Below, one piece after another: positions 4,087-23,500 of a DNA stretch of 24,000 nucleotides (positions are counted from its first letter, which is position 1; every line of letters starts with the position of its first letter). The notes under the pieces were generated by a model. That model did no database searches and had not been told where the DNA came from. It saw nothing but the letters and a program-made list of their open reading frames with translations. The DNA comes from an uncultured Phycisphaerae bacterium. Lineage in GTDB: Bacteria; Planctomycetota; Phycisphaerae; Sedimentisphaerales; Anaerohalosphaeraceae. A program made the position numbers and the translations under genes. The stretch lies in the NCBI GenBank assembly GCA_937949545.1, contig CALEDR010000038.1, forward strand, positions 53,503 through 77,502, given 5' to 3'.

Positions 4087-5286
4087 CTACACCTTCAGCC
4101 GGGCGAATTTGCGTTTGCCGACCTGAACAACCATCCCGCTGTGCGGGGTGATTTCCTGATTGGGGTCGGTGATTTTTTCATTATTGATGCGGACGCCTCC
4201 CTGCAGGACGGCCCGTTTGGCCTCTCCGCCGGTGGCGGCCAGTCCGCACTGGAGCAGGAGTTTGGCGGCGGCGATGGGGGCGGCGCTGACGGCCACTTCC
4301 GGCATTTCATCGGGCAGCTGGCTTTGGGCGAAGACCTTTTCGAATTCTTCGGCGGCCTGCTGGGCGGCCTGCCTGCCGTAAAACTGCTGCACGATGAGTT
4401 TGCCCAGCAGGATTTTGGCTTCTTTCGGGTGAGTCTTGGACGGGTCGGTCAGCTCCCGGATGCGCTCGGCGGGCAGGTCTGTCAGAAGCGTAAAGTAGTT
4501 TTCCATCAGATGGTCGGGGATGCTCATCGTTTTGCCGAACATGTCGGAGGGCTTGTCGGTGACGCCGATGTAGTTGCCCTTGGATTTGCTCATTTTTTCT
4601 TTGCCGTCCAGGCCGATGAGGATGGGCATGGTGATGACAATCTGGGCGGGCTGGCCCGCCAGACGCTGGAGGTCTCTGCCGACCAGATTGTTGAAGGTCT
4701 GGTCGGTGCCGCCCAGCTCGACGTCGCTCTGGATGGCCACGGAGTCATAGCCCTGCATCAGCGGGTAGAGGAATTCGTGGATGCCGATGGGGTCGCCTTT
4801 TTTGTAGCGGATTTCGAAGGTGTCGCGTTCGAGCATCCGGGCGACGGTCATTGAGGCGGTCAGTTTGATGATGTCGGCCAGACGCAGGTCGGCCAGCCAT
4901 TCGCTGTTGAACCGCACCTCGACTTTGTCGGGGGACATATCGAGGATTCTGCCGGCCTGCTCGAAGTAAGTTTTGGCGTTTTCCTGGATTTTTTCGGGAC
5001 TGAGCATCGGGCGGGTGGTGTTCTGGCCGGTCGGGTCGCCGATGCGGGCGGTATAGTCGCCGATAATCAAGACGGCTTTGTGGCCCAAGTCCTGAAACTG
5101 CCGGAGCTTGCGAAGGACGACGGTATGGCCCAAATGAATATCCGGCGCGGTGGGGTCCATTCCGAGTTTAGCCCGGAGAGGCCGGCCGGTTTTGGCGGCA
5201 TCGGCCAGACGCTGGGCCAGTTCTTCTTCGCGGAAGACCTCGACGGTTCCGCGTTTGAGGATTTGCATCTGCTGGGCAATGTCCAT
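4087..5286 (-). CDS. tyrS: Tyrosine--tRNA ligase
   Basis: 399 aa. Class I synthetase signatures HLGH (DIHLGHTV) and KMSKS. C-terminal S4-like RNA-binding tail ([20 protein letters not shown]). Confidence 0.95.
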
Positions 5287-5443
5287 TGGAGTTCCTTATT
5301 TTTGTGCCGTTTGGTTCGAACCGTCTTAAAGACTGAGAATTATAGCAAAAGGGCCGGCGGTCTGCAAGGGCAGGGAGGAAAAGGCAAAGGAAGAATGGAG
5401 AATGAAGAAAAGGCGGCGGGACCGCCGGCGGGGGGAAGCGGAC

Positions 5444-5499
5444 AAAATCCGAAGTACGAAACCCGAAACCCGAAACGAGAAATCCGAAATCCCAAACAC
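5444..5499. repeat. Heptanucleotide tandem repeat, about 8 units, consensus GAAAYCC
   Basis: Units read directly: aaaatcc gaagtac gaaaccc gaaaccc gaaacga gaaatcc gaaatcc caaacac. Non-coding, between tyrS and the AT-rich island. Confidence 0.8.
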
Positions 5500-5540
5500 T
5501 TCCGCCGAAGGCCAAAGACCCCCAAAACCGGAAAAAAGGG

Positions 5541-5602
5541 GTTGAAAAGAGGTTGTGAGATATAATAAAATGTTGAAAAGAGGTTGTGAGATATAATAAA
5601 AT
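5541..5602. repeat. Perfect 31-bp tandem direct duplication (2 abutting copies)
   Basis: GTTGAAAAGAGGTTGTGAGATATAATAAAAT occurs at 5541-5571 and again at 5572-5602 with no mismatch and no spacer. Each copy carries TTGAAA and TATAAT hexamers 13 nt apart. It lies exactly where GC content drops. Confidence 0.9.
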
Positions 5603-5670
5603 TCCTTTTTATAAATAAATTTTACAAGACCTTGCGGATGGAGAAAATCGGGATAAACGCAGGAGGAATC

Positions 5671-7494
5671 ATGCAAACCATACAGCTGGCATTTCCGCCA
5701 TTCGAAGGAGAAGAAGAAGGATTAAATGATGCGGGAATTGAGACATTCGAAGGAGATATAGAGGATCATGTTGCAAGAGAATGCGGTCAGAATACTTGTG
5801 ATGCTGCTTTAGACAAAAAAGAAGTGAAGCTGCATTTTTCTCTTCTTACAGTGCCGATTGATCAGCTGCCGTGCCTGCTTGAATTAAAGGATGTTTTTAC
5901 TAGATGCATAACTTATTGGAAAGATGATCCTAAAGCAGTTTCCTTTTTCTCAAAGGCCAAAACCTGCCTCGAGCAAGAAACGATAAGCGTACTAAAGATA
6001 AGCGATTACGGTACAACCGGACTGACAGGGACAGATACAGACAGAACAGGCAGGTGGTATTCTCTGGTCAGGGCCAAGGGAGCCTGCAACAAAGACGCAG
6101 GTGCCGGAGGCTCTTTCGGGATCGGAAAATATGCTCCTTTCGCCGCTTCCAAGCTTCGTACTGTTTATTATTATACACGCACCGCAGAAAATGAGGCCTT
6201 TCAGGGTGTCTCACGATTGGTAACTCATCACAATGCCCAAGGACAGAAAGTTCACCCCACCGGCTATATTGGTGAATGTATTCAAAGGAACGGTACATAC
6301 TCCTTCAATTCCATCCGTAATTCAATACCTGAATTTTTTCGAAGACCTACTGGGGATACAGGAACCGATATATATGTCCCTGCCTATCGAAAAAGCGATC
6401 GGTGGGAAGAACAATTAATAATCTCTGTTCTGAATAACTTCTGGCCGGCTATCTGCATGAAAAAAATTGTATTTAAGATAAACAACACTGCTATAGACTC
6501 TAATAACATAGAACAATATATGGAACAATATAAACAGCATGAAGCATTCACAGCATACCGATATTTTAATGCTTATAAAAACGGGGTCCCCTTTGAGTGC
6601 GCTCTTGAGATTGTAGGCAACTCCGAACTGAGGCTGATAATTGATGACATGCGGGAAAGCAAACCTATTGCCGTATGCAGAAAAAGCGGAATGATTATTG
6701 ATACCTGGGGACGTTTCAGGAGACGAAAGCCTATTAGCGGGGTCTATATCTGTCATGATAAAAAAGGAAATGAAATTTTACGGAAATTAGAACCGCCTCG
6801 TCATGACAAATGGGATCCAAAACGAGGAGAAAACGGGGAAGAGGTGATTGAGACAATTAGGGATTGGATTCGCAGCTGCATTGACAGTCTTCTGAAAGAA
6901 GAGACAAATGAATCCTTTCAAATTTCTGCAATGGCTCAATATTTACCCGACGACGAAATTTTCGGGCCGGAGACAATACCAGGAGGGCTTCCCTCGGGCC
7001 CCAAAGGAACCACTACATCGCCAATAACTGGTTTGCCCCCGAGGACCCCTCCAATTGCTGAAGGTGGGCATAATACAACAACTGGAGAAGGAGAAGGGAC
7101 AAACGGCGGCGGGGGCGTCAAAGAAGGAGGCGGGAAAGGGGGCGAAGGACATGACGGAAGAGGCAGTGGTGCGAAGGACGGCGGCGATGGGACAAAAGGG
7201 GTCAAGAAAGCTCCAAAAGGGAATTTGCACATGCGATGCATGTATGATGAAGTCCAGCAGTTTTATACAATCGTGCTTCGTTCTGATGCCGAATTTGAAG
7301 GCAGAATATCATTCGGAGCAGTCGGAGATGACGGTGAAATGGAAATGCTGCAGATTGAAAAAGTGATGCAGGATAACAAGGAGTTGCCTATAGAAGGAAA
7401 TGGTTTCTTTGTACAATTGAATCCAGACAATCCCCAGCATTATAGGCTGATGTTTGAAGAAAAGGAAAAGATGACCTTAAGGATAATAAAATGA
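5671..7494 (+). CDS. GHKL (Bergerat-fold, MORC/MutL/Hsp90-like) ATPase with Gly/Pro/Thr-rich linker and small C-terminal domain
   Basis: The track ORF starts at 5632, but AGGAGGA (5661-5667) sits 3 nt before the ATG at 5671. Motif I (N-box) ARECGQNTCDA fits ExxxNxxDA, with E at 5779, N at 5791 and D at 5800. Motif II-like ISDYGTTGLTG lies at about 6004-6030. Motif III GAGGSFGIGKYAPF lies at about 6100-6141. A low-complexity linker spans about 6964-7221. Confidence 0.65.
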   Translation: MQTIQLAFPPFEGEEEGLNDAGIETFEGDIEDHVARECGQNTCDAALDKKEVKLHFSLLTVPIDQLPCLLELKDVFTRCITYWKDDPKAVSFFSKAKTCLEQETISVLKISDYGTTGLTGTDTDRTGRWYSLVRAKGACNKDAGAGGSFGIGKYAPFAASKLRTVYYYTRTAENEAFQGVSRLVTHHNAQGQKVHPTGYIGECIQRNGTYSFNSIRNSIPEFFRRPTGDTGTDIYVPAYRKSDRWEEQLIISVLNNFWPAICMKKIVFKINNTAIDSNNIEQYMEQYKQHEAFTAYRYFNAYKNGVPFECALEIVGNSELRLIIDDMRESKPIAVCRKSGMIIDTWGRFRRRKPISGVYICHDKKGNEILRKLEPPRHDKWDPKRGENGEEVIETIRDWIRSCIDSLLKEETNESFQISAMAQYLPDDEIFGPETIPGGLPSGPKGTTTSPITGLPPRTPPIAEGGHNTTTGEGEGTNGGGGVKEGGGKGGEGHDGRGSGAKDGGDGTKGVKKAPKGNLHMRCMYDEVQQFYTIVLRSDAEFEGRISFGAVGDDGEMEMLQIEKVMQDNKELPIEGNGFFVQLNPDNPQHYRLMFEEKEKMTLRIIK

Positions 7495-8363
7495 AGACGA
7501 CCGAGAGATTCCCTTATCCTGTTTTGTCAGCTTTTTCCGATGATATAGAAAACTCAACATTTGAGTCGACTGTTATTTATCAAACTGACAAAAAAGACTA
7601 CCGTTTCACCTACACAATCACGTTGCACAATTCCACGATAATACAGCTATTAAAAGAACACCGAGCCGTTCTTGCACTTCATTTTGAATGCGGAAGGACC
7701 TTTTTTCGGGAAAAATATAAAATAGAAGACATCACATGGTCTGACTGCATCACCATCAGCGGAACAATTGTAATCCCATGGAGCCGGATATGCGGCAAAA
7801 CCGAAATCTCAGCATTTATATATGCTGATGATGTTATCGAGAATTACCATCCTGAAGGGCTCCACCCTGATTATCAGCAGACCACTTTTACAATGCGGCC
7901 GGGAGAAATATTGGCTACAAGCGGACCGGTGATACTCGATGTGTATTCAGACTATGAGCCCATTCAAAAACCCGATTCAATTATTGTATTCAAACTCGAC
8001 AAAGAAAGAGAAACAGGCGAAATACACATCAATCTCAATTCAGACAAAATCGAAGTTTCTCTTCCGAAGAATATGTTTGACAAATATGAGGCCTTGCGTA
8101 CTGACAAGCAGAAAGAGGGCATCATAACATCTTTGCTCGGCATACCTGTATTGATGGAAGGACTAAGATTCATTAAAGAAACTGTGGACGAGAATCTCTC
8201 AGAAAACAGGCGGTACCGATGGTTCAGATCACTTGAAAAAAAACTTCTTGAGATGGGAATCAATATCAAGAATGAAGAAAACACTTTTGAAGCTGCGCAA
8301 AGGGTTTTTGAAAATCCATATATGAGAGCAGCAGATGATTTTGAAAAGATGGATAGGTTATGA
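7491..8363 (+). CDS. Hypothetical protein (orphan, operon partner B)
   Basis: 290-aa ORF. Its start overlaps the upstream stop (ATGA at 7491-7494). AT-rich codon usage matches its neighbours. I recognise no catalytic motif. The N-terminus is ERFPYPVLSAFSDD and the C-terminal third is helical and charged. Confidence 0.7.
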   Translation: MKTTERFPYPVLSAFSDDIENSTFESTVIYQTDKKDYRFTYTITLHNSTIIQLLKEHRAVLALHFECGRTFFREKYKIEDITWSDCITISGTIVIPWSRICGKTEISAFIYADDVIENYHPEGLHPDYQQTTFTMRPGEILATSGPVILDVYSDYEPIQKPDSIIVFKLDKERETGEIHINLNSDKIEVSLPKNMFDKYEALRTDKQKEGIITSLLGIPVLMEGLRFIKETVDENLSENRRYRWFRSLEKKLLEMGINIKNEENTFEAAQRVFENPYMRAADDFEKMDRL

Positions 8364-9067
8364 AACTCAAAGTATTTAAGCAGGAATCTCTGGAACAGCT
8401 AAAAAGGGATGCTTCAAAACAAATCGATTTGTATCAGAGGACGACACCTTGGCTTAATGAATATTTTCGAGGCGGAGCCTATTACTGTGAGACTCAGATT
8501 AATCTGCCCGACAACCTTTCTCTTCTGACTGAAGGTGAACCATCCGATACGGACAAGGAGAATTCGAAGCGAATATATGAAGCATTCAGGGGCAGGATCA
8601 ACCCGGTGCAAGCCGCCGAGGAGCGATTATGGACATATCTTTGTCATGAAACATTTTGGGACTACATGATTTGGCGATGGCCTCCCAAGAAAGAAGGAAC
8701 CATTATCAGCAGATATTTTTTTGACGGCGAAAGCAGCAGAGCATTAAGCAGAAACGGCATCTCTCGCCTTTGGTGGTTTGCTCATTTAACATATGATGAA
8801 AGCAGAAATGACCCATATGAACTGACAAATATCCTGCTTTACTCGCAGGATATTCAGCATAATCTGCTTGAAAGAAATTTCGGCAGGAACAGAACCATTC
8901 TTCATACCGTGCTTGATTTTTTAAGAGTGCACCCTGAAATAAAAGGCAAAGAGCAATACGTTAAAATTGTAAAGACCTTAAACCGTCTGGGCGGAGTCAG
9001 GCTTTTAGATGCGTTGGGACCTGAAAGAATCAAAGAGTATATTGAATCGAAAATACTGAATCGATAA
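8360..9067 (+). CDS. Hypothetical protein (orphan, operon partner C; Trp-rich helical)
   Basis: 235-aa ORF. Its start overlaps the upstream stop (ATGA at 8360-8363). Trp-rich segments ERLWTYLCHETFWDYMIWRWP and ISRLWWFAHLTYDE. I cannot assign a family with confidence. Confidence 0.7.
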   Translation: MKLKVFKQESLEQLKRDASKQIDLYQRTTPWLNEYFRGGAYYCETQINLPDNLSLLTEGEPSDTDKENSKRIYEAFRGRINPVQAAEERLWTYLCHETFWDYMIWRWPPKKEGTIISRYFFDGESSRALSRNGISRLWWFAHLTYDESRNDPYELTNILLYSQDIQHNLLERNFGRNRTILHTVLDFLRVHPEIKGKEQYVKIVKTLNRLGGVRLLDALGPERIKEYIESKILNR

Positions 9068-9073
9068 AAATAC

Positions 9074-9484
9074 ATGGCTGACCATTTAACAAAGGAGAAG
9101 CGAAGCTGGAATATGTCGAGAATCCGAAGCCGGGATACGGCACCGGAAAAGGCGGTAAGGTCGCTTCTTCATTGTCTGGGGTATCGGTTTCGGATATATC
9201 GGAAAGATCTGCCGGGCAAGCCGGACATTGTTCTTGCCAAATACAAAACGGTTATTTTTGTCCACGGCTGTTTTTGGCACCGTCACAAAGGGTGCCAACG
9301 ATGCACAACCCCATCCGCCAATCAGGAATACTGGCTTGCCAAATTTGAAAAAAACATTTCAAAGGATAAAAAAAATAAAACGCTTTTAAGGCGTTTGGGC
9401 TGGAAAGCCATTACTGTCTGGGAATGTGAAATAAAAAAACCGGATAAGCTGACCCAGCGGCTTGTCAGATTAATCGGGAATTGA
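9074..9484 (+). CDS. vsr: Very short patch repair endonuclease (T:G mismatch nicking)
   Basis: 136 aa with typical Vsr sequence: KRSWNMSRIRSRDTAPEK, PGKPDIVLAKYKTVIFVHGCFWHRH, and WLAKFEKNISKDKKNKTLLRRLGWKAITVWECE. It starts 6 nt after the stop of gene C. Confidence 0.92.
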   Translation: MADHLTKEKRSWNMSRIRSRDTAPEKAVRSLLHCLGYRFRIYRKDLPGKPDIVLAKYKTVIFVHGCFWHRHKGCQRCTTPSANQEYWLAKFEKNISKDKKNKTLLRRLGWKAITVWECEIKKPDKLTQRLVRLIGN

Positions 9485-10660
9485 ATAATTTGCTTCGACC
9501 GAAGGGTAATCAATTCTTGCAAATGTCTTTAACACAGCCTCAAAAATAATTTTGGCTCCCTGCGGCGGTACTGCCATTCCTATCTGCTTTCTGATTTGTT
9601 CCTTGGAGCCGTAAAAGATGAAGTCATCAGGAAACGTCTGGATTCTTGCACGCTCCCGGTTTGTCAGACACCGATGCTCCTTCCAGTGATAAACATGGGT
9701 TCCGCCGCCCCCGCTGCCGGTAATTGTATAGGACGGCAGATGGGGCTGCAGCCGTCGGTAAATATGACTCATGCGGGCTTTTGTGCAGCGAAGACGGGCA
9801 TTATCAATTCTGCGGCAGATTTCCTCATCTGTCAGGCCGGCCAGCTCATCTTCATACCAGGGCAGATTTCTGATTATTTCCTGCCTTTCCGGAGGAGGCA
9901 TTCTTAGAAGTTCATCTAAAAACCATGCATTTTGACCCGGCGGTGTGAATAAAAGACGCTCGACAACACGAGGATTCTGGCGAGTTAATTCTGAATTGGC
10001 AGCATCTTTGGGGATTTTTGATAAGGCAGCCTGCACAGAGACATACGGAATCTTTTCTGGACCGTGAGTAGGAGCCGGCACCTTAAAATGCAGATGTTTA
10101 TCTTTTCTGATGCCGACAACAATAAATCTGTGTCGATACTGAGGAATCCCATATTCTTCAAAACGGTATAAATGGGCTGTCAAATTATAACCGTGTCTGC
10201 CTGCTGACCGCATTTCTTTCAAAATCAGCTCGAATGCTTTCCCTTCGTCCGAAGAGTGGATCCCTCCTACATTTTCTGCGATAAACCAAACAGGATTCAT
10301 CTGATTCAGAGCTTCAATTCCTGCCTTATACAGTTTGCCGTATTGCCCGTTTACACCTTTTCTCTTCCCTACGAGGCTGAAATCGTTACAGGGAAAACCG
10401 AATGCCAGTGCAGTTATCCTCGGGTAAGAAAAAATTTCCTCCCGGCAAAACACTTCTGCATCCTGACATACAGCTTTGCTACCGTACTTCTCTGCAAGAT
10501 TGCGTCTATATGTTTCGACGGCATCTGGGGCCTTGTCAACTCCCCATACAAGCGAGATAGAGAAACCCTCTCCCTTCGATGAAACAGCCGGCGAAGCCAG
10601 TGCTGCTCCTAAAGCCAAGCCTCCAGGTCCGCAAAACAGTTCACCTAATTTAAATATCAT
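9470..10660 (-). CDS. dcm: DNA (cytosine-5)-methyltransferase
   Basis: 396 aa with the C5-MTase motifs in canonical order. Motif I is ELFCGPGG, IV is GFPCNDFS, VI is IAENVGG and VIII is PQYRHRFIVVG. Motif IX is RERARIQTFPDDFIF and X is QIGMAVPP. The 3-prime end overlaps vsr by 15 nt (convergent). Confidence 0.93.
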   Translation of the reverse strand: MIFKLGELFCGPGGLALGAALASPAVSSKGEGFSISLVWGVDKAPDAVETYRRNLAEKYGSKAVCQDAEVFCREEIFSYPRITALAFGFPCNDFSLVGKRKGVNGQYGKLYKAGIEALNQMNPVWFIAENVGGIHSSDEGKAFELILKEMRSAGRHGYNLTAHLYRFEEYGIPQYRHRFIVVGIRKDKHLHFKVPAPTHGPEKIPYVSVQAALSKIPKDAANSELTRQNPRVVERLLFTPPGQNAWFLDELLRMPPPERQEIIRNLPWYEDELAGLTDEEICRRIDNARLRCTKARMSHIYRRLQPHLPSYTITGSGGGGTHVYHWKEHRCLTNRERARIQTFPDDFIFYGSKEQIRKQIGMAVPPQGAKIIFEAVLKTFARIDYPSVEANYSIPD

Positions 10661-10755: not shown

Positions 10756-10959
10756 ATGATGATGGATTACGAAATTGCGGAACAAGCCGCAAAAATATTT
10801 GGCGGGGAGGCGTGGGATTCCGGGGGCGGAATTTGCCTAATCTGCATTCCTCAAAGTAACGGTCGGCTGGTTGTCATATCTGATGAGGCAGTCTGCGAAT
10901 ATAACAGCGAAGAGGACTTCGAAAAGAATCTTGCAAGCAAATCTATTCTTCTGCATTAA
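10756..10959 (+). CDS. Small acidic hypothetical protein (65-67 aa)
   Basis: AGGAG SD directly before three consecutive ATGs (10756, 10759, 10762). AT-rich like the island. No motif recognised; it does not look like an HTH protein. Confidence 0.5.
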   Translation: MMMDYEIAEQAAKIFGGEAWDSGGGICLICIPQSNGRLVVISDEAVCEYNSEEDFEKNLASKSILLH

Positions 10960-11711: not shown

Positions 11712-14518
<2,807 letters not shown>

Positions 14519-14859
14519 CGATTCAAAACTCACAACATCCTGTGGAAACCTTCCCACGAGACATCATACCCCAGGAAAATTTTTTCAAAAACAAAAAATT
14601 TTTCTAAATAAAACAAGCCGCTCTTTCTCAGAGCATATCCGAAAAGAGTCCCGAAGAGCCTCGGCGGAGGAGCTTTTTCAAACTCTCCTTTCTGTTGGGT
14701 CGAAAGAAGGGTTTTGATGCATTTTAGGAAATGTGCTTTTTGGATAAAAGCGGCCGGATGGATGCAGTTCGCTGAGAAAACAAACAGCGTTTTGCACGGG
14801 TTGGGAAGAGGAACGGACCGTTAAAACGTCTTATCTCTGACGAAAAAAATGAAGGAAGA

Positions 14860-14889
14860 TTGAACTTTTTGTCGATAATTCTGTATAAT
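14860..14889 (+). promoter_or_regulatory. Sigma70-like promoter of the Lys-rich mini-gene
   Basis: TTGAAC (14860-14865), 18-nt spacer, TATAAT (14884-14889), with TG immediately upstream of the -10 hexamer. Confidence 0.5.
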
Positions 14890-14975
14890 CAGCATCGATG
14901 AAATGCTCTTTGGCAAAGCCAAGACGGCAAAGGAAAAGAAAAGTACAGACCAATCCGAAAGGAGGTGACTGAAGA

Positions 14976-15047
14976 ATGGCAAAGAAAGCCGCAAAGAAAG
15001 CCGCCAAGAAAACAGCCAAGAAGAAAGTCGCCAAGAAGAAAAAATAA
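14976..15047 (+). CDS. 23-aa Lys/Ala-rich basic mini-protein (MAKKAAKKAAKKTAKKKVAKKKK)
   Basis: Not in the ORF track because it is under 60 aa. GGAGGTG SD (14961-14967) lies 8 nt before the ATG. It ends at TAA 15045-15047. A strong intrinsic terminator follows 24 nt later and a consensus-like promoter lies about 90 nt upstream. Confidence 0.6.
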   Translation: MAKKAAKKAAKKTAKKKVAKKKK

Positions 15048-15070
15048 CACCCACACAACGGTGGCGCACA

Positions 15071-15112
15071 AAGAGGGTTTTGCAGGAACTGCAAAATCCT
15101 CTTTTGTTTGTT
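15071..15112 (+). terminator. Rho-independent terminator
   Basis: 14-bp stem AGAGGGTTTTGCAG (15072-15085) pairs with CTGCAAAATCCTCT (15089-15102), including one G-U pair. The loop is GAA. It is followed by TTTGTTTGTT. Confidence 0.75.
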
Positions 15113-15199
15113 CCTGCTTGATTCTTTTGACCGTCTCGTAAAAAACCCGATACAATTGCGCCGCTGGGATGCGCTTTATAAGTCCTTGTTTATAATAGA

Positions 15200-15763
15200 T
15201 TAATAGATGGTTCCGCCTCGCTCTGCATAGGTTTGAATCACACCGGCGGCTTCCGAACGCAGCAGGTCTGTTCGGACGTCAATCCCTCTTTTTTGAAGGG
15301 CCTCTATCCAATCCGAGGGTTTGTGTCCCTCGTCAAATCCGACCTGCCGTGCATCTTCCTCACGAGCGGCACAGATCAGAGCCGACATGCCTGACCAGGG
15401 AATTGCTCCCAAACACATCGCACAGGGCTGGCAGGAGGAATACAATTCATAACGTCCGCTTAAATGAGAGGAAAGACGGTGTTTGCCGAGAGTCTTCTGG
15501 GCCAGGGAAAGGGCCGTAATTTCCGCATGGGCGATACTCAGACCGGAGTATACAACCAGATTGGCGCTCGCAGCAATCAATCGGCCGCTGTTCTCTTCAA
15601 AAACGGCTGCGGCAAACGGTCCGCCGGTGCCGTGTTCGATGTTCCTTCGGGATAGGCCGATTACCCATTTCATTTTCTCTTCGGCAGAAGGGAATGACTG
15701 CTTGAAGGAGCGCAGGAGGTCCTGCAGCCACGGCGGCAGGCTGACGGAAAATACCGTTTCCAT
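15200..15763 (-). CDS. Zinc-dependent nucleoside/nucleotide deaminase (CDA fold; guanine/cytosine deaminase-like)
   Basis: The track ORF extends to 15976; the ATG at 15763 (METVFSVSLPPW) leaves a sensible divergent intergenic region. Motifs HAE (SIAHAEITAL) and PCxxC (CQPCAMCLGAI). Confidence 0.8.
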   Translation of the reverse strand: METVFSVSLPPWLQDLLRSFKQSFPSAEEKMKWVIGLSRRNIEHGTGGPFAAAVFEENSGRLIAASANLVVYSGLSIAHAEITALSLAQKTLGKHRLSSHLSGRYELYSSCQPCAMCLGAIPWSGMSALICAAREEDARQVGFDEGHKPSDWIEALQKRGIDVRTDLLRSEAAGVIQTYAERGGTIY

Positions 15764-15898: not shown

Positions 15899-16753
15899 AT
15901 GACGATACAGGAACAATTCCGAACAGCGACCTGTCAGTTTCCGGTGTGTTCTGACGTTGCGGCAAATGCAGAACACATCCGCTCACTGATAAAGCAAGCC
16001 GCCCGGGAAGGGGCGGATGTTGTTCATTTTTCCGAATGTGCTCTCAGCGGATATGCGAGCGTGGATTTTGAGACGTTTGACGGCTACGACTGGGATCTGC
16101 TCAGAAAGGAGACTTTGGCCATTGCGGCGCTGGCGGCGGAGGTGCGGATTTGGGTGGTTTTGGGGTCGAGTCATCGGCTTACCGCTCCCCATAAACCGCA
16201 CAATAGTCTTTATTTGATCAGTCCGGAAGGGAAGATTGTCGACCGTTATGACAAACGGTTTTGCACCGAGTGGGACCTGAAACACTATACGCCGGGCAAT
16301 CATTTTGTCTATTTTAACATTCGCGGGATAAAATGCTCTTTGCTGATTTGTTTTGACCTTCGGTTTCCGGAACTGTACCGGGCGTTGTATAAAGAGGGAG
16401 TCAAAGTGATTTTTCAATCTTTCTATAATGCCCGCCAGCAGGGTCCGAGCATTCATTCGGAGATTATGCGTCAAACGATGCAGGCCAATGCCGCCGATAA
16501 CGGATTCTGGGTGAGCATGTCCAATTCCTGCGGCTGGTATTGTCCGTATCCGTCCTGCTTTATCCAGCCGGACGGTCGAATCATTGCTCAATGTCCGGAG
16601 CATCAGGAGGGGATGATTATCAATACAGTGGATTGGGGTCAGACGTTTTATGACCCGTCCGGGCCGTTCCGGGATTTGGCGGTTCGGGGGATTCTGACCA
16701 ATGGTCCGGAGGAGATTGCTGATGAACGGTCTCGAAATCGAACCTGTTTATGA
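15899..16753 (+). CDS. Carbon-nitrogen hydrolase (nitrilase-superfamily amidohydrolase)
   Basis: Start trimmed to the ATG at 15899 (MTIQEQFR). The E-K-C triad contexts are HFSECALSGY, RYDKRFC and LLICFDLRFPELY. Confidence 0.8.
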   Translation: MTIQEQFRTATCQFPVCSDVAANAEHIRSLIKQAAREGADVVHFSECALSGYASVDFETFDGYDWDLLRKETLAIAALAAEVRIWVVLGSSHRLTAPHKPHNSLYLISPEGKIVDRYDKRFCTEWDLKHYTPGNHFVYFNIRGIKCSLLICFDLRFPELYRALYKEGVKVIFQSFYNARQQGPSIHSEIMRQTMQANAADNGFWVSMSNSCGWYCPYPSCFIQPDGRIIAQCPEHQEGMIINTVDWGQTFYDPSGPFRDLAVRGILTNGPEEIADERSRNRTCL

Positions 16754-17941
16754 AGGGCTGCGGTGAAGCTGGCGGTATTTGTGGGGAAGCATTCCGGTGA
16801 TTTCCAGAAATGCCCGCCGCATATTGGAGGTGTAGTGAAAACCGGAGCGAATCGCAACCGTCTCAATCGGCAGATTGGTCTCGACCAGCAGCGTGCGGGC
16901 CAGTTCAAAATGTGCCCGGATGATTTCATCATGGATAGACCGCCCCAGGGCCCGCTGAAACTTCATCTGCAGCGTCCGCTTGCTCAGGCAAAGCTGCTCG
17001 GCGATGTCATCCACCTGCAGCGGCTGCGACGCATGGCTTCGGATGTACCGCAGCGCCTTGATGAGTTCCTCATCCTCCAGCGCATACATATCGGTCGAAC
17101 CGCGCTCCCGCACACCCGCCGGCTGAATGCGTATCCATTGTCCCCGCATCCGCTCTTTCCCGCGGATGATGTCATCCATCAGCCGGGCCGCCTCATATCC
17201 GGCCGTCTTGAAGTTAAACGCGATGCTCGACAGCGGCGGGCTGCACAGACTGCAGATGGCTTGGTCATCATCCACCCCCAGCAATGCGATTTCCTCCGGA
17301 ATCCGCAGCCCCGCCTCCGCCGCTACATTGTTCAGATGGCAGGCCAGCACATCATTGCTAACCAGGACGGCGATGGGCTTCGGAAGCTGTTTGAGCCAGT
17401 CGATCAGGGGCTGCTGGCCTTTCTGAAGGATGGTATCAATCCACAGTTTGGCCGCGGGCACCGATTCGCTCCGAATCGGACACGGACTGCTTTGGAAGGT
17501 ATGAAGTGTTCCCCCATCCCGCTCGACACACCGCCGGAACGATTCCATCCTTTCCATAGACCAGCGGGCCTCACTGATTCCAAAAAAGGCAAACTGGGTA
17601 AACTTTTTGCCCTTGAAATAGTCATAAGCCGTCTGAGCTATCTGGTCCGGGTCGGCGCTGATATACGGAATCGAGAGCAGATTTTGAAGGGCCGAGAATG
17701 CGATAACCGGCATCTTGATTTTGAGGATTTGCTGGGCCATCATCGAGGTTTGGATATTGGCAAAAGTTCCCCGACAGCCGCGTTCTTTCAAAAATTCGAT
17801 AGATTCAAAAGACGAGTCTGCCCAGATTATCAAATCCCAATCCCCTTTGTCCCGAATGTACTCTGTGATACCGGACAGAATGCCTTGGGTGTTGTGAGTA
17901 ATATTGGTGTAGGCAAAAGCAATTTTGACTTTTGGTTTCAT
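16748..17941 (-). CDS. XylR-like transcriptional regulator (periplasmic-binding-protein-like sugar sensor plus AraC-type HTH)
   Basis: Start trimmed to the ATG at 17941 (MKPKVKIAFAY). The N-terminal domain is LacI/PBP-like. The C-terminal AraC HTH is ALRYIRSHASQPLQVDDIAEQLCLSKRTLQMKF...IRSGFHYTSNMRRAF. It overlaps the CN-hydrolase 3-prime end by 6 nt. Confidence 0.8.
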   Translation of the reverse strand: MKPKVKIAFAYTNITHNTQGILSGITEYIRDKGDWDLIIWADSSFESIEFLKERGCRGTFANIQTSMMAQQILKIKMPVIAFSALQNLLSIPYISADPDQIAQTAYDYFKGKKFTQFAFFGISEARWSMERMESFRRCVERDGGTLHTFQSSPCPIRSESVPAAKLWIDTILQKGQQPLIDWLKQLPKPIAVLVSNDVLACHLNNVAAEAGLRIPEEIALLGVDDDQAICSLCSPPLSSIAFNFKTAGYEAARLMDDIIRGKERMRGQWIRIQPAGVRERGSTDMYALEDEELIKALRYIRSHASQPLQVDDIAEQLCLSKRTLQMKFQRALGRSIHDEIIRAHFELARTLLVETNLPIETVAIRSGFHYTSNMRRAFLEITGMLPHKYRQLHRSPS

Positions 17942-18240
17942 TTTGCCGCTGACAATATTTATTTTTGCGCAAAATAAATGTCCGATAGACAGAATATACG
18001 TTTGGACTCTGAGAAAGTCAAGGAGAAAGCCGGCGATTTCCGATGAATAAAATCCTGAAAAGATGGGCAAAAGCAGTCTTTTCTCTCTTATCTCTATGAA
18101 ATACAAGCCGTTGCGCAAAATTATCTTTTTTTAAGCGCGAGATTGCCTTGTTCATCCTTGCTCCAAAATCGAAAATGAAACTGTCAGGCGGAAAGTATGA
18201 AATGAAAGTTTCAAAACTTGCGGGAAAAAAGGGGATGATT

Positions 18241-19050
18241 ATGAAACGAAAGGCATTTACCCTGATTGAGCTGCTGGTTGTTATTGCTATTATTGCGCTG
18301 CTCTTGTCGATTTTGCTGCCTGGCTTAAAGACAGCCAAAGATATTTCCAAGCGGGTTATTTGTGCCTCGCGTCTTCGTCAAGTGGGAGTGGCGATGCGCT
18401 CGTATTCGCAGTCGTATGAAAATCTGCCGGATGCGGTGGACCGAAAAGGCAAGCAGGAATTAGGGCATGGGTATGCGGTCTATCGCGGAGATAAGCCCGA
18501 ATGGATTGATGCCAACGGCAAACCGATACCGATTCGCTGGGCGAAATTGTATGAGAGCGGCTTTATGGAGGAGCCGAAGATTTTTTATTGTCCGGGCAAT
18601 CGCCTGGAGCTGTATAAATATGAATCCTACTGCCAGCCGGCTCCGTGGGGCACTTTGCCGCAGGATTTCAATGCGCGGAACGGCAGCAACCAGTGGATTC
18701 GCATCGGCTTTACCTATTTTCCCATCGCCCGCAATCCGGTGATGTCCACTACCATCTTTGCGCCCGCGCAGTTCCCGAAGAAATTCACGGATTTGCATCC
18801 GTCTTTGCCGTATGCAACGGATGTCTTGTGGGGGCGGAAGAACCTCAGCCATCAGCGTCTTCAGGATTCCGGTTCGGAGTTTAAGGCATCCAATAATTAT
18901 TCGGTCAATGCCCTTTTTGCGGATGCTCATGTGAGCAACTGCAAGAATCCGGAGGTCTTCAAACATCCGGTCTGGGACCGGTTTGACGGCAGTCAGGTGG
19001 ATTATAACGAATACTATTACACCGTGTTCCGTCTGATCGGCGGAATGTAA
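18241..19050 (+). CDS. Prepilin-type N-terminal cleavage/methylation domain protein (DUF1559-like pseudopilin)
   Basis: The N-terminus MKRKAFTLIELLVVIAIIALLLSILLPGL is the classical type IV pilin/T2SS leader. The C-terminal NALFADAHV motif is typical of the DUF1559 family that is expanded in Planctomycetota. The start could alternatively be at 18235. Confidence 0.85.
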   Translation: MKRKAFTLIELLVVIAIIALLLSILLPGLKTAKDISKRVICASRLRQVGVAMRSYSQSYENLPDAVDRKGKQELGHGYAVYRGDKPEWIDANGKPIPIRWAKLYESGFMEEPKIFYCPGNRLELYKYESYCQPAPWGTLPQDFNARNGSNQWIRIGFTYFPIARNPVMSTTIFAPAQFPKKFTDLHPSLPYATDVLWGRKNLSHQRLQDSGSEFKASNNYSVNALFADAHVSNCKNPEVFKHPVWDRFDGSQVDYNEYYYTVFRLIGGM

Positions 19051-19120
19051 TCTTGCTGCCCCTTGGGGGTTCCGACGAAACACATTCAGTAAACAGAAAA
19101 CAGAGAAGAAAATCCGAAGT

Positions 19121-20338
19121 ATGATTCCGGTTGCCGTTATAGGTACAGAGGGGTATGCACATAAGCAGCTGGAACGGATTTTCTTTTTAAATACGTGCTT
19201 TGATGTTGTGGGCGTCTGCAGCGAGCCGAACCGCCGTGAAAAAGGCTACCGGATGTGCGTGGAGCGCGGCATTGACGTGTTCGACGATGTGAAAAGTTTA
19301 CTGGAGGCGGTGCGGCCGCGGGCGAAGGCGGTTTTTGTTTTTACCGGGATTGACAGCCATTATCAGTATGCTCGGCAGTGTCTGGAGCAGGGATTTGAGG
19401 TCTTTTTAGAAAAGCCGCCGGTGCCGACCATTCAGCAGATGGATGATTTGATTGCTTTAGAAGAGCAGACCGGACGGCGTGTGGCGGTGCTGTTTCAATA
19501 TTTATACAGCGGAATTGTCCAGACGCTCAAACGCCGGATTGTTTCGGGTGAGTTCGGGCAGGTCCGGCGGGTTCGTTCGCTGGCGGCCTGGCAGCGTCCG
19601 GATGCCTATTTTCGGCGGAATCACTGGTGCGGCACGGTGCGGACCTCCTGCGGGGAATGGGTGCTGGACGGGACGCTGAACAATCCGCAGGCGCACGTGC
19701 TGAGCAATTCGCTGTATCTGGCGGGTTTGCAGGCGGACCAGATGGCTTATCCGCTGGTGGTGGAGGCGGAGCTGTACCGTGTGCACGAAATTGAATCTGA
19801 GGACACCAGCAGCATGCGGATTGTGTGCGAAAACGGCTGTGTGCTGATTCACAACACGACGCTTTGTTCGGCCTCGGAAGTGCGCAGCGAAACGGTAGTG
19901 GAATGCGAGCGGGCAACGATTACGTACCGCAATTTCAATCAGGCCCAGATTGTTTTCAAGGACGGCCGTCAGGCGGAGTTTCTCGAAGAATCCGAAGACC
20001 CGCGGATGGAGATGCTCAAGGATGTGGCGTTCTGTTTTGAGACGGGCCGTCCTTATAAGGTGCCGCTGTCGCTGTGCCGTCCGTTTACGCTGTGTGTGAA
20101 CGGGGCGTTCGATTCGAGCGGGGAGCCGGCGGATATCGACCCGGCTCACGTGGTCAAAAGCCGTCATAACGGGCTGCCGATTACGCTGATTAAGGATATC
20201 GTGCCGATTATGCAGCGGGCTCACTCGAGCTGCCAGCTGCTGTCCGAAATCCAGGTCCCCTGGGCCCGTCGCGGGCGTCCGATTGTGATGAAGGAATATT
20301 CGAGTTTTCCCGGTCAGCGGGTGTCGTGGGAAAGCTGA
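19121..20338 (+). CDS. Gfo/Idh/MocA-family oxidoreductase
   Basis: 405 aa. N-terminal Rossmann beginning MIPVAVIGTEGYA and the family EKP motif (VFLEKPPVPT). Confidence 0.7.
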   Translation: MIPVAVIGTEGYAHKQLERIFFLNTCFDVVGVCSEPNRREKGYRMCVERGIDVFDDVKSLLEAVRPRAKAVFVFTGIDSHYQYARQCLEQGFEVFLEKPPVPTIQQMDDLIALEEQTGRRVAVLFQYLYSGIVQTLKRRIVSGEFGQVRRVRSLAAWQRPDAYFRRNHWCGTVRTSCGEWVLDGTLNNPQAHVLSNSLYLAGLQADQMAYPLVVEAELYRVHEIESEDTSSMRIVCENGCVLIHNTTLCSASEVRSETVVECERATITYRNFNQAQIVFKDGRQAEFLEESEDPRMEMLKDVAFCFETGRPYKVPLSLCRPFTLCVNGAFDSSGEPADIDPAHVVKSRHNGLPITLIKDIVPIMQRAHSSCQLLSEIQVPWARRGRPIVMKEYSSFPGQRVSWES

Positions 20339-20523
20339 CGCCGCTGACCGCGGCTGACTGTGCTTTGATTTCTTCTTGGGTGAATGGAGGGGGTGTTGTT
20401 GTCTCTGTTCGGGTCATTGGAAAACACAAGGCAGCACAAAAGAAAATGGTGCTGTCTGGCGGGAAAGGCTAGGCGAGGATATCCTGGATTTGTGGTTACG
20501 CTTCTGTGCAAGGTAGAAAGGCA

Positions 20524-23500
20524 ATGAAAACAAAGAATCCATCCTTCGGGCGCAATCCGCTTCGAAAGAGCTTGCTCTTGTGGTTCGGCTGTTTTCTGTG
20601 CAGCGATGTTGGTCTGTCTGCGGCCTCGGCAATGCTGCAGACGGATATTCTCTACGGGAAGGCGGGCGGACAGGAGCTGCGGTTGGATGTCTGTGTGCCG
20701 CCGGGCCGGGGACCTTTCGGGATCGTTCTGTATGTGCACGGAGGGGGCTGGAGCAGCGGCGATAAAACGCAGGACCGGGATGAACTGCTGGAAGTCTTTA
20801 CCAAAGCGGGGTGGGTGTGGGTTTCGGCGGATTACCGGTTGGCGCCCGCGCATCGGTGGCCGGCGTGTCTGGAGGATGTGCAGGCGGCGATTCGCTGGGT
20901 GAAACAGCATGCAGCGGACTACAAGGGAGACCCGAACCGGATTGTGCTGGCCGGATACTCCGCCGGCGGGCATCTGGCTTGTTCGGCGGCCGTTTGGGGC
21001 AAAGAGGATACGAAGGTTCAGGGGGTCATCGGTCTGGCGCCGCCGGTGGATATGGTGGCCGACAATCAGCGCCGCGGCGGATTGAGCACCTCAATGCAGA
21101 ACCTGCTGGGGCTGGGGCCGGAACTGAATGAAGAGTCTGCGGCGGTTTTGAAAAAAATTTCCCCGATTTGGGATGTTCGGGCGGGGCTGCCGCCGTTTCT
21201 GCTGGTTCACGGCACACGCGATCAGAGTGTGCCGTATCAGCAGTCGCTGGATTTGAAGGCGGCTCTCGAACGGTGCGGCGTGCCGTGTGAACTGATTCCC
21301 ATCGAAGGCGCCGGACATCGTCTGACAGAATGGGAGCGGTTTGAGCCGCACTGGAAGCAAAAAACGGCCGATTGGCTCCGGAGGACCTTCGGCCCTTCTT
21401 CCTCCCTTTCCGGCCGGCGGATTGTCGTCAGTGCGGATGGAAAGGGAGATTATTCCTCAGTTCAGACGGCGATTGATTCGATTCCGTCGGGCAATGCCGA
21501 ACCGGTTGAGATTTGGATTCAGCCGGGCGTGTATCGGGAACGGATTGTCATACCGGAGGACAAACAGCTGATTCGAATGAAGGGGCAGGATGCCCGCACG
21601 ACGATCCTGACCTACAATTTGTATGCGGGGATGCGGGATGAGAGCGGCAAGGAAATCGGCACATTTGCGACGCCTTCGGTGACGATTCGGGCGGACGATT
21701 TCGTTGCGGAGGACCTGACCTTTGAGAACACGGCCGGACCCGTGGGGCAGGCGGTCGCACTGGCGGTCTTCGGCGACCGATGCGTTTTTCGGCGGTGTCG
21801 GTTTCTGGGCTGGCAGGATACGCTGCTGGATCATCGCGGGCGGCATTATTATGAGGACTGCTACATTGCCGGTCATTGCGATTTTATCTTCGGCAGCGGC
21901 ACGGCGTTTTTTGAACGATGTCATATCCATTGCCTGGAGGCCAGTTATATCACAGCCGCCTCGACCCCGCCGGAGCAGAAGTGGGGCTTTGTCTTTTCCA
22001 ACTGCCGCATAACGGGGGAGCCGGCGGGGCGGGCCAAGACCTATCTGGGGCGTCCGTGGCGGGATTATGCGAGTGTGGTTTTTCTGAACACGGAGATGGC
22101 AGACATCATCCGTCCGGAGGGCTGGCACAACTGGAACCAGCCGGCACGGGAGAAGACGGCCCGGTATGCAGAGTATCAGAGCCGCGGCCCTGGGGCCAAT
22201 CCGGCGGCGCGCGTGCCGTGGTCTCGACAGCTGACCCAAGAAGAGGCCCGGCAAATTACGGTGCCTTCCGTTTTGGGCGGTCAGGACGGATGGTATCCGA
22301 AGACGTCGGGCGAGTCTGCTCGTACGCCGAAAAAGGAACAGGGTCTGCGGCTGTGGTACACACGGGCGGCGCAGGAGTGGACGGAGGCCCTGCCGATTGG
22401 GAACGGGCGTCTGGGGGCAATGGTGTTCGGCGGGGCGGCTCAGGAGCGGCTTCAGTTCAATGAAGATACCCTTTGGAACGGAGAACCTCATTTCTACCAT
22501 CGCGAAGGGGCGGTCCAATATTTGCCGCAAATCCGGCAGCTGCTGGAGGAAGGCAGGCAGAAAGAGGCGGAGGAGCTGGCGGCTCGGGAGTTTATGAGTG
22601 TGCCGCTGCGCCAGAAATCATATCAGCCGTTTGGGGATTTGTTTCTGCGGTTTGACGGTCATCAAGGGGCTTCCGATTACCGGCGGCAGCTGGATTTGGA
22701 ATCCGGCGTTGTAAAAATTCAGTATCGGCTGGGGGATGTGAAATTTGAACGAACCTATTTTGCCAGTTATCCGGACCAGGTGATTGTCGGGAAAATCTCC
22801 TCCGATCGGCCCTGGCAGGTTTCGTTTACGGCCGCTTTTCAAAGCCCGCATGAGGAGATTGCTGTCCGGCGAATCGATGACAGTCAAGTCGAGATGACCG
22901 GCCGGGTGAAAGACGGACAGCTGCGGTTTGCGGCCAGACTCCGTGTTTGGGCGGAAGCCGGAACGGTCAAAGTTCAGGATGACGGCTCAATTGCGGTGGA
23001 ACGGGCGGATTCGGCCTTTTTTGCGCTGACCGGTTTTACGAGTTTCAAGATCTTTCAGGATATCAGCGGCGAGCCGTCGGCCAAGTGTGCCCAGACCCTG
23101 GAGAAAGTTGCCGGCAGGATGTATGCGGAACTTCTGTCGGCCCATCAGGCCGATTATCGCAGTCTTTTTGGGCGTGTTCGGCTTGATTTGGGGCAGACGC
23201 CGGCGGCGGAATGGCCGACAGATGAGCGGCTCAAAGACCCGTCTGCCGACCCGGCCCTGGCGGCACTGTATTTTCAGTATGGGCGATACCTTCTGATTTC
23301 CAGTTCCCGGCCCGGAACTCAGCCGGCAAATCTGCAGGGCGTATGGAATGACCAGCTGAATCCGCCATGGGGCAGCAAGTACACGGTGAATATCAACACG
23401 GAGATGAATTACTGGCCGGCCGAAGTCTGTAATTTGTCCGACTGTCATCAGCCGCTGTTTGATTTGATTGCGGACTGTGCGGTCAGCGGGCGCAAAACCG

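Follow-up and report, generated by a model that had tools for sequence, protein, structure and literature searches.

We analysed a 24,000-nucleotide stretch of DNA from an uncultured Phycisphaerae bacterium (contig CALEDR010000038.1 of assembly GCA_937949545.1, positions 53,503 to 77,502 of the forward strand; hereafter the window) that carries a low-GC island of 5.4 kb built from three co-directional genes, here called A, B and C, a very-short-patch-repair gene (vsr) and a cytosine methyltransferase gene (dcm). In the open reading frame (ORF) listing, A (5671-7494, + strand) encodes 607 aa, B (7491-8363, +) 290 aa and C (8360-9067, +) 235 aa, with 4-nt ATGA overlaps of A with B and of B with C; vsr (9074-9484, +), encoding a T:G mismatch endonuclease, follows C after a 6-nt gap and closes the + strand operon, and dcm (9470-10660, - strand), encoding a complete C5-cytosine DNA methyltransferase (Dcm), converges on it with a 15-nt overlap of the 3' ends. 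A longer ORF that begins with TTG at 5632 encloses A's ATG at 5671, and an AGGAGG lies 6 nt 5' of this ATG. Vsr matches PF03852 in Pfam (E = 3e-33) and TIGR00632 at 149.2 bits against a cut-off of 97.85, full-length over positions 1-119 of the 119 in the profile; Dcm matches PF00145 (E = 2e-60) and the PADLOC model MTase_II (E = 8e-101), and all of its catalytic motifs were found: I (FCGPGG), IV (PC, residue 90), VI (ENV, 129), VIII (QxRxR, 174) and X (GMAVPP, 361).

The GC content of the window is 0.40-0.47 over ~5.5-11 kb and 0.57-0.60 in the flanks, and the same island is present in an 88%-identical relative of the window (locus L088 in our comparison). An earlier note on this DNA, made from the letters and ORFs, had given the gene coordinates, the ATGA overlaps, the 6-nt gap, the convergent complete dcm and the Vsr, all of which the ORF listing and family matches reproduced exactly; it had also read the shared AT-rich composition as a sign that the five genes were acquired as one foreign unit, which both the composition and the island in L088 bear out. 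The stretch upstream of A is conserved from ~5440 to 5670 between the window and L088: it comprises a leader (5440 to 5540, +), which is rich in short CCGAAA-like repeats and, as it aligns with the sequence upstream of A in L088, belongs to the same module, and a 31-bp perfect tandem duplication (5541-5602, +; GTTGAAAAGAGGTTGTGAGATATAATAAAAT twice) in which each copy contains TTGAAA and TAAAAT at a spacing of 18. The window has two copies of this promoter-like element and L088 has one; from its sequence, the repeat is likely the promoter of the A-B-C-vsr operon, with each copy a sigma-70-like candidate.

We found that the island has a secure identity: it is a horizontally acquired copy of the PDC-M33 cassette (A-B-C) with its own C5-methyltransferase and Vsr. 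In PADLOC, the three proteins match only PDC-M33 models at E ≤ 1, and they do so at full length and as adjacent, co-directional genes in the order of the model (A vs. PDC-M33A, E = 2.1e-132, profile positions 3-596 of 627; B vs. PDC-M33B, E = 1.1e-61, positions 4-282 of 289; C vs. PDC-M33C, E = 1.3e-69, positions 1-240 of 247). All three are real genes, with homologues of A in more than 1,500 protein clusters of the databases and relatives of C in 1,630 cluster representatives (mostly 230-260 aa). PDC-M33 is cassette CAS_00129, one of 145 candidates that were picked for being embedded in BREX, DISARM or type I restriction-modification (R-M) systems, which the authors themselves term untested, and its three families carry no annotation (Payne et al., 2024, bioRxiv 10.1101/2024.01.29.577857). 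The claim of the earlier note that the module is undescribed and matches no named system therefore falls, since one model set fits all three proteins, and the pairing of a GHKL ATPase with Dcm and Vsr is not new either: GHKL+S5 ATPases (MORC and paraMORC1-5) in Dcm/Vsr operons were described computationally in 2008 (Iyer, Abhiman and Aravind, PMC2292703). Our literature searches returned no characterisation of PDC-M33, of DUF6339, of a bacterial MORC of this kind, or of an anti-phage system that joins a GHKL protein to a cytosine methyltransferase, and a strict link of PDC-M33 to C5 methylation was nowhere in the papers searched. The cassette is thus one that is already catalogued, with an anti-phage role that is a candidate only and a mechanism that is opaque.

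The model of A computed with AlphaFold2 (AF2; mean predicted local distance difference test score, pLDDT, 83) divides the protein into a predicted GHKL ATPase domain (residues ~1-240), a predicted S5-like transducer (~241-425), a low-complexity linker rich in Gly, Pro, Glu and Lys (428-515; window 6952-7215) that is predicted to be disordered (pLDDT < 50) and is poorly conserved, and a predicted C-terminal beta-sandwich (519-606). Foldseek placed this model, with probability 1.00, next to TRAP1/Hsp90 (8e-9), Topo VI-B (1e-6), MutL LN40 (1e-5) and GyrB 43K (2e-5), and its matches among GHKL plus transducer proteins range from E = 8e-9 to 1e-4. In an alignment of 70 sequences, the Bergerat motifs are invariant (motif I or N-box, E37-x3-N41-x2-D44; motif II or G1, D112-x-G-T-T-G117; and motif III or G2, the Gly-rich ATP lid, G147-S-F-G150-I-G152-K153), and the codons at 5779, 5791 and 5800 that the earlier note had singled out as the N-box are those of E37, N41 and D44. 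Its reading of A as a Bergerat-fold ATPase is thereby upheld: on the predicted structure, A is a real GHKL plus S5 transducer ATPase. Note that this assignment rests on predicted fold and invariant motifs and not on sequence-profile homology. A has no sequence or profile match in Pfam, NCBIfam or the PDB, neither A nor any of 70 family members has a Pfam HATPase match at E ≤ 1, and an hhalign comparison of the A family with one genuine HATPase_c_3 protein showed no similarity (probability 0.2); A represents a GHKL+S5 family that Pfam misses. Some sources label homologues of A as 'membrane protein YgcG', for which the low-complexity linker is probably the reason.

The likeness of A to MutL, GyrB, Topo VI-B and Hsp90/TRAP1 extends over the predicted fold of residues 1 to ~425 and the ATP motifs; however, identity over the aligned regions is 8-13%, A has its own linker and beta-sandwich C-terminus, and those proteins are housekeeping ones, whereas A is found in a mobile-island context with other partners. 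With the prokaryotic MORC and paraMORC proteins, A has in common the GHKL and S5 domains, intact ATP motifs, Dcm/Vsr neighbourhoods and a sporadic lateral spread (PMC2292703). Two residues of A, E374 and H378, are invariant across the 70 sequences, within an LEPPRHDxW motif that stands right after the last transducer helix and is followed by a long helix; E374-P-P-R-H378 fits the hallmark of paraMORC2, an ExxxH at the end of S5, a likeness drawn from the published description of the motif (PMC2292703). The paraMORC families, however, have superfamily II (SFII) helicases and endonucleases of the restriction-endonuclease (RE) fold or HNH type as partners (PMC2292703), whereas the fixed partners of A are B and C, with no helicase or recognisable nuclease.

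For B, the AF2 model (pLDDT 90.6) shows an Ig-like beta-sandwich (~20-192) followed by a helical bundle (193-289), for which Foldseek returned only non-catalytic sandwich modules at a template-modelling (TM) score of ~0.2. No Pfam signal, weak matches included, recurs among 73 members of the B family (nor among the 70 of the A family), and sequence and profile searches of the PDB were empty. We considered and rejected a PD-(D/E)xK nuclease: B is modelled as a beta-sandwich with a helical bundle, and the candidate Lys is missing from the B of the window. By its predicted fold B is non-catalytic; of the cassette proteins it is the one whose similarity tracks that of A most closely, and it is a probable adaptor or partner of A.

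C belongs to DUF6339 (Pfam PF19866, E = 4e-56), and the invariant or near-invariant residues of its family are D65, N68, Q84, D87, R89, W91, Y102, R106, W107, R131, R136, W138, W139, D164 and R172. A HEPN domain was considered and rejected, as a possible Rx4-6H motif lacks a conserved His. The B3 DNA-binding domain is the target-recognition module in EcoRII, BfiI and NgoFVII-type restriction enzymes, and one relative of C among the 1,630 representatives (P0258, 430 aa) joins DUF6339 to a C-terminal NgoFVII-type B3-like DNA-binding domain; an hhalign comparison of the C family with a neighbouring B3 endonuclease showed no similarity. Other long relatives of C (P0314, P0377, P0307 and others) bear extensions without a family assignment. 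C is a candidate for the DNA-engaging or effector subunit.

To place the island among its relatives, we sought homologues of A in one genome per species and obtained at least 532 loci, of which the best 80 were kept for comparison; A, B and C were located in these loci by iterative hidden Markov model (HMM) searches of their ORFs, and seven distant plasmid or phage loci (A identity 27-30%) were inspected besides. The best 80 span Planctomycetota, Verrucomicrobiota, Bacillota, Bacteroidota, Patescibacteria, Gemmatimonadota, Proteobacteria and others. As the earlier note's account would have it, A-B-C homologues co-localise in other genomes: of the 70 loci with enough downstream sequence, 69 keep the three genes co-directional and in the A-B-C order, and the 70th has a frameshifted or split B. 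Their pairwise similarities are correlated (Spearman, 0.80 for A-B, 0.61 for A-C and 0.63 for B-C). A-B-C is a strictly syntenic, co-evolving cassette. It is also mobile, being found on plasmids and in a temperate phage, and having among its neighbours Shedu, type I R-M, Mza, Schlafen-like helicases and recombinases. One locus (L017) holds a second A-B-C copy at 18013-21288.

The linkage of the cassette to a C5-methyltransferase is near-obligate. In the fetched stretches, Dcm is present in 64 of the 69 complete loci, which amounts to 64 of 64 informative ones, the other five being uninformative because they are cut 343 bp or less from the module on the side where their relatives carry Dcm. In 46 loci Dcm and the cassette are not separated by any unassigned gene, and in 19 Dcm shares the strand of A and its stop codon falls 30 bp or less 5' of the start of A; among the distant plasmid and temperate-phage loci, Dcm is within ~5 kb in six of seven. 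The two parts also decay unequally. Cassette genes are split in four loci (A in L026 and L047, B in L037, C in L085), and Dcm is intact beside the decayed cassette in L026, L047 and L085, with L037 cut upstream; none of the loci compared pairs a broken Dcm with an intact cassette. Loss of A, B or C but not of Dcm is the pattern expected of a toxic effector guarded by a methylase. We reasoned that a linkage to Dcm that is near-obligate and in many loci operonic, this asymmetry of decay, the relative of C fused to a B3 domain, and the occurrence on mobile DNA and in defence islands together argue for A-B-C as a methylation-linked, ATP-dependent defence module, a reading to which we would give an even chance.

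Several observations weigh against this reading and complicate the simple view of A-B-C as the restriction enzyme. The adjacent Dcm often has an endonuclease of its own, such as an NgoFVII-like (L051), a FokI/AlwI-like (L073, L078 and Planococcus), an EcoRII-type (Arthrobacter and Paenarthrobacter) or a MutH/Sau3AI-type enzyme (Priestia), a LlaJI-type endonuclease with an AAA_5 protein (L020, L029 and L080), or a type II B3 enzyme (L061 and relatives), so that A-B-C is not needed as the restriction enzyme in those loci. Similarity of Dcm tracks that of A-B-C poorly (Spearman only 0.07-0.24). Moreover, L048 compared with L025 and L036 amounts to a natural swap, in which A-B-C are ~80% identical and the identity of the target recognition domains (TRDs) of the methyltransferases is 0.31-0.34; none of the domains of A, B or C shows a compensating change. 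The cassettes on the L. salivarius megaplasmids are the one clear exception to the linkage itself, as the nearest 7 kb hold no C5-methyltransferase; the cassette occurs on nine L. salivarius plasmids, and in pMP1046A (L081, 45628-60902) it has hsdS/hsdM on one side and an MmeI-type N6 enzyme, a DEAD-box helicase and a GIY-YIG nuclease on the other. At the level of the proteins, Pfam, PADLOC and Foldseek found no nuclease, helicase or P-loop in A or B, and no effector fold; C has no PDB relative by sequence or profile search, and no relative of known function in Pfam or the PDB. Finally, the literature searched contains no experimental test of PDC-M33. The earlier note had seen no nuclease, helicase or P-loop in the two orphan proteins, which stands for B by Pfam and predicted fold (and likewise for A), while C matches only DUF6339. 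Its proposal that A-B-C fills the slot of the missing endonuclease is weakened, given how often the adjacent Dcm comes with its own endonuclease and that the methyltransferase was swapped with no matching change in A-B-C.

We also looked for a domain in A, B or C matched to the specificity of the methyltransferase. Partial correlations with the methyltransferase TRD reach 0.36-0.37 for the C-terminal domain of A and the sandwich of B, values that are confounded by shared ancestry and are contradicted by the L048 swap, and the idea was rejected. Since one methyltransferase can take the place of another and many of them already come with an endonuclease, A-B-C is probably without a matched sequence-specific reader of the type II kind. 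These same properties would fit an alternative in which A-B-C is a self-contained, methylation-independent defence system that merely clusters with, or is co-mobilised with, 5-methylcytosine (5mC) R-M systems: the methyltransferase can be swapped and co-evolves poorly with the cassette, many adjacent Dcms are already paired with an endonuclease, the L. salivarius cassettes do without a C5-methyltransferase, and the PADLOC model consists of A, B and C only. N6 methyltransferases are, however, commoner than C5 enzymes in R-M systems generally, and the neighbour here is specifically a C5-methyltransferase in every informative locus and in most of the distant ones. Clustering by chance of shared mobility would also sit poorly with the translational coupling of Dcm to A in the 19 loci above and with the lack of an intervening gene in the 46. 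Furthermore, where Dcm is an immediate neighbour, its TRD has often diverged less than its catalytic domain between cassettes that are themselves very dissimilar (in L008 vs. L010, TRD 0.61, catalytic domain 0.52 and GHKL 0.42), which suggests that a few methyltransferase types are preferred. We consider methylation-independent defence rather unlikely.

A second alternative comes from the repair genes. Of the 69 complete loci, 37 have a gene for Vsr or for an HhH-GPD glycosylase; vsr directly follows C in the window and in eight tight operons, and an HhH-GPD base-excision glycosylase, which may be a stand-in for Vsr as a T:G mismatch glycosylase, lies near the cassette in L017, L019, L030, L049 and L051. 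In Escherichia coli, MutL functionally interacts with Vsr. By analogy with that established interaction (cited in PMC2292703), A-B-C could be an accessory of 5mC maintenance or repair, in which a MutL-like A would, with B and C, help Vsr or the glycosylase to deal with T:G mismatches, and what ties Vsr to Dcm would also tie the cassette to it. The presence of A-B-C next to Dcm whatever the accompanying endonuclease, just as for Vsr, the place of MutL LN40 among the nearest folds of A, the lack of a nuclease fold in A or B, the position of vsr after C and the five glycosylase loci all speak for such a role. On the other side, the repair genes occur in just those 37 of 69 loci whereas Dcm occurs in all informative ones, the L. 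salivarius cassettes have no C5-methyltransferase, the cassette was first picked up inside BREX, DISARM or type I R-M systems, and it is carried by plasmids and prophages in the company of other defence genes. A repair accessory is, on balance, an improbable account of A-B-C in our judgement.

That the cassette so frequently neighbours complete 5mC R-M systems, and has no matched specificity domain, could also be explained by a modification-dependent, type IV-like module directed against hypermodified phage cytosines and acting as a second layer beside those systems. This explanation leaves the bare, tightly coupled Dcm-A-B-C(-Vsr) operons unaccounted for, as well as the loss of A, B or C with retention of Dcm, and neither PADLOC nor Pfam shows a similarity to a known type IV family; we regard it as highly unlikely. 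A different view of the same data is that A-B-C is a restriction machine that has no nuclease or uses a new chemistry, and that either reads the C5-methyl mark itself regardless of sequence context or uses the resident Dcm as its reader. Such a machine would explain what is seen, namely one cassette beside many methyltransferase specificities, beside complete R-M systems and tolerant of a swap; even so, we offer such a machine tentatively, as a doubtful idea.

The comparison with known systems bears on how far methylation-linked defence by A-B-C would be a variant of something familiar. Mza resembles it as a Dcm-linked module with a GHKL ATPase and often with Vsr, and PADLOC recognised Mza genes next to the cassette in L010 and L013 (MzaB, 2e-79; MzaC, 3e-139; also MzaD and MzaE), which served as a positive control. 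In contrast to an identity of the two, the Paenibacillus loci L010, L013, L016 and L049 hold a complete Mza with a second Dcm (~13.7-21.8 kb) beside Dcm-A-B-C; Mza and A-B-C are distinct systems because both are complete side by side. With a classical type II 5mC R-M system accompanied by Vsr (e.g. EcoRII-Dcm-Vsr), the island has in common a complete C5-methyltransferase and Vsr, co-directional genes and a foreign island; however, the classical system has a single nuclease, whereas here a three-protein cassette, ATP-dependent as judged from its motifs and models, has no endonuclease fold in A or B, and in other genomes the cassette adjoins complete type II systems of the EcoRII, AlwI, Sau3AI and NgoFVII type. 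A system of the McrBC, BsuMI or LlaJI type was considered and rejected, as A, B and C have no AAA_5 or RE_LlaJI match and such genes were recognised in L020 and L080.

If A-B-C is a methylation-linked defence module, its parts could act as follows. A would dimerise on ATP and serve as a clamp or switch on DNA, like MutL, GyrB, Topo VI-B, Hsp90 and MORC. B would be a non-catalytic partner bound to A through its beta-sandwich and helices, and C (DUF6339) would be the subunit that faces the DNA and, of the three, the strongest candidate left for the effector chemistry. Methylation by Dcm would mark resident DNA as self, and Vsr would repair the T:G mismatches that arise from deamination of 5mC. 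We infer, in this scheme, that A, B and C assemble into a complex, that the cassette attacks unmethylated DNA and that C is the effector.

Many copies of the cassette have a further gene that the window lacks. In 52 of 87 loci (e.g. L001, 9731-9976; L002, 9715-9972; L015, 4147-4428; L083, 6719-6949), a conserved gene of ~75 aa with the motif RLAE.R...LIGNL.N.NNYDY immediately precedes A on the same strand; the window and L088 are without it, although L001, L002 and L015 are relatives of the window. It occurs in none of the 19 loci in which Dcm is coupled to A and in 37 of the other 50, so that the two arrangements are mutually exclusive. No model for it was found in PADLOC, Pfam or PHROGs. As no model covers this conserved gene, PDC-M33 as modelled is probably short of a fourth component. 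Separately, 11 Firmicutes loci (L056, L061, L063, L066, L069, L071, L073, L074, L076, L078 and L079) carry a gene of 800-1,096 aa right after C on the same strand, with only matches of the helix-turn-helix (HTH) type (Sigma70_r4 and RNAP alpha-CTD) and no PADLOC model, which may be a lineage-specific extra component. The published PDC-M33 model comprises three genes only, and includes neither of these two genes nor the C5-methyltransferase nor Vsr (Payne et al., 2024). A search of PHROGs was empty for A, B, C, the ~75-aa protein and the product of the Firmicutes gene.

Housekeeping genes flank the island on both sides: on the left a putative tyrS (4087-5286, - strand), assigned by reading its sequence, and on the right ligA (11829-13916, + strand), whose counterpart in L088 has DNA-ligase Pfam domains. 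Neither att-like repeats nor a tRNA were found at the island borders, where both were looked for. Within the low-GC island, an ORF of 67 aa (10756-10959, +) is divergent from dcm; it has no family match, and among the relatives only L088 has kept it. We considered it as a component of the system and rejected it for this limited conservation, and it probably lies outside the conserved module. An inversion of ~11 kb distinguishes the window from L088, with breakpoints at ~5430 (just left of the leader) and ~16700 in the window and at 7752-8001 in L088. The genes for an AraC-type regulator, N_methyl and GFO_IDH_MocA abut A in L088 and are found at 16748-20338 in the window, in the opposite orientation, so that the putative tyrS, and not the AraC-type regulator group, abuts the island in the window. 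Two more low-GC patches (0.45) lie in the window at ~14000-15500 and 17500-18500, among genes for a cytidylyltransferase-like protein, a deaminase-domain protein and an AraC-type regulator.

PDC-M33 is widespread, occurring in at least 532 species genomes of many phyla, on plasmids and in a temperate phage. To its catalogue entry, the present analysis adds the near-constant tie to a C5-methyltransferase, the interchangeability of that methyltransferase and the identity of A as a GHKL+S5 protein that is invisible to Pfam, together with a B that is non-catalytic by its predicted fold, a conserved small fourth gene in many copies and the finding that no known nuclease is detected. What this means for the family would depend on which account of A-B-C is true. 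As a repair accessory, the cassette would amount to a mobile version of the pairing of MutL with Vsr. As a machine that reads the methyl mark, it would be a prokaryotic clamp of the paraMORC type coupled to cytosine methylation, prefiguring the link between MORC and DNA methylation in eukaryotes, and DUF6339, the family of C, would add a new domain that acts on DNA. As a methylation-dependent defence system, it would represent a new use of 5mC as a self mark, and would provide a tractable bacterial model of the coupling of GHKL/MORC proteins to DNA methylation.

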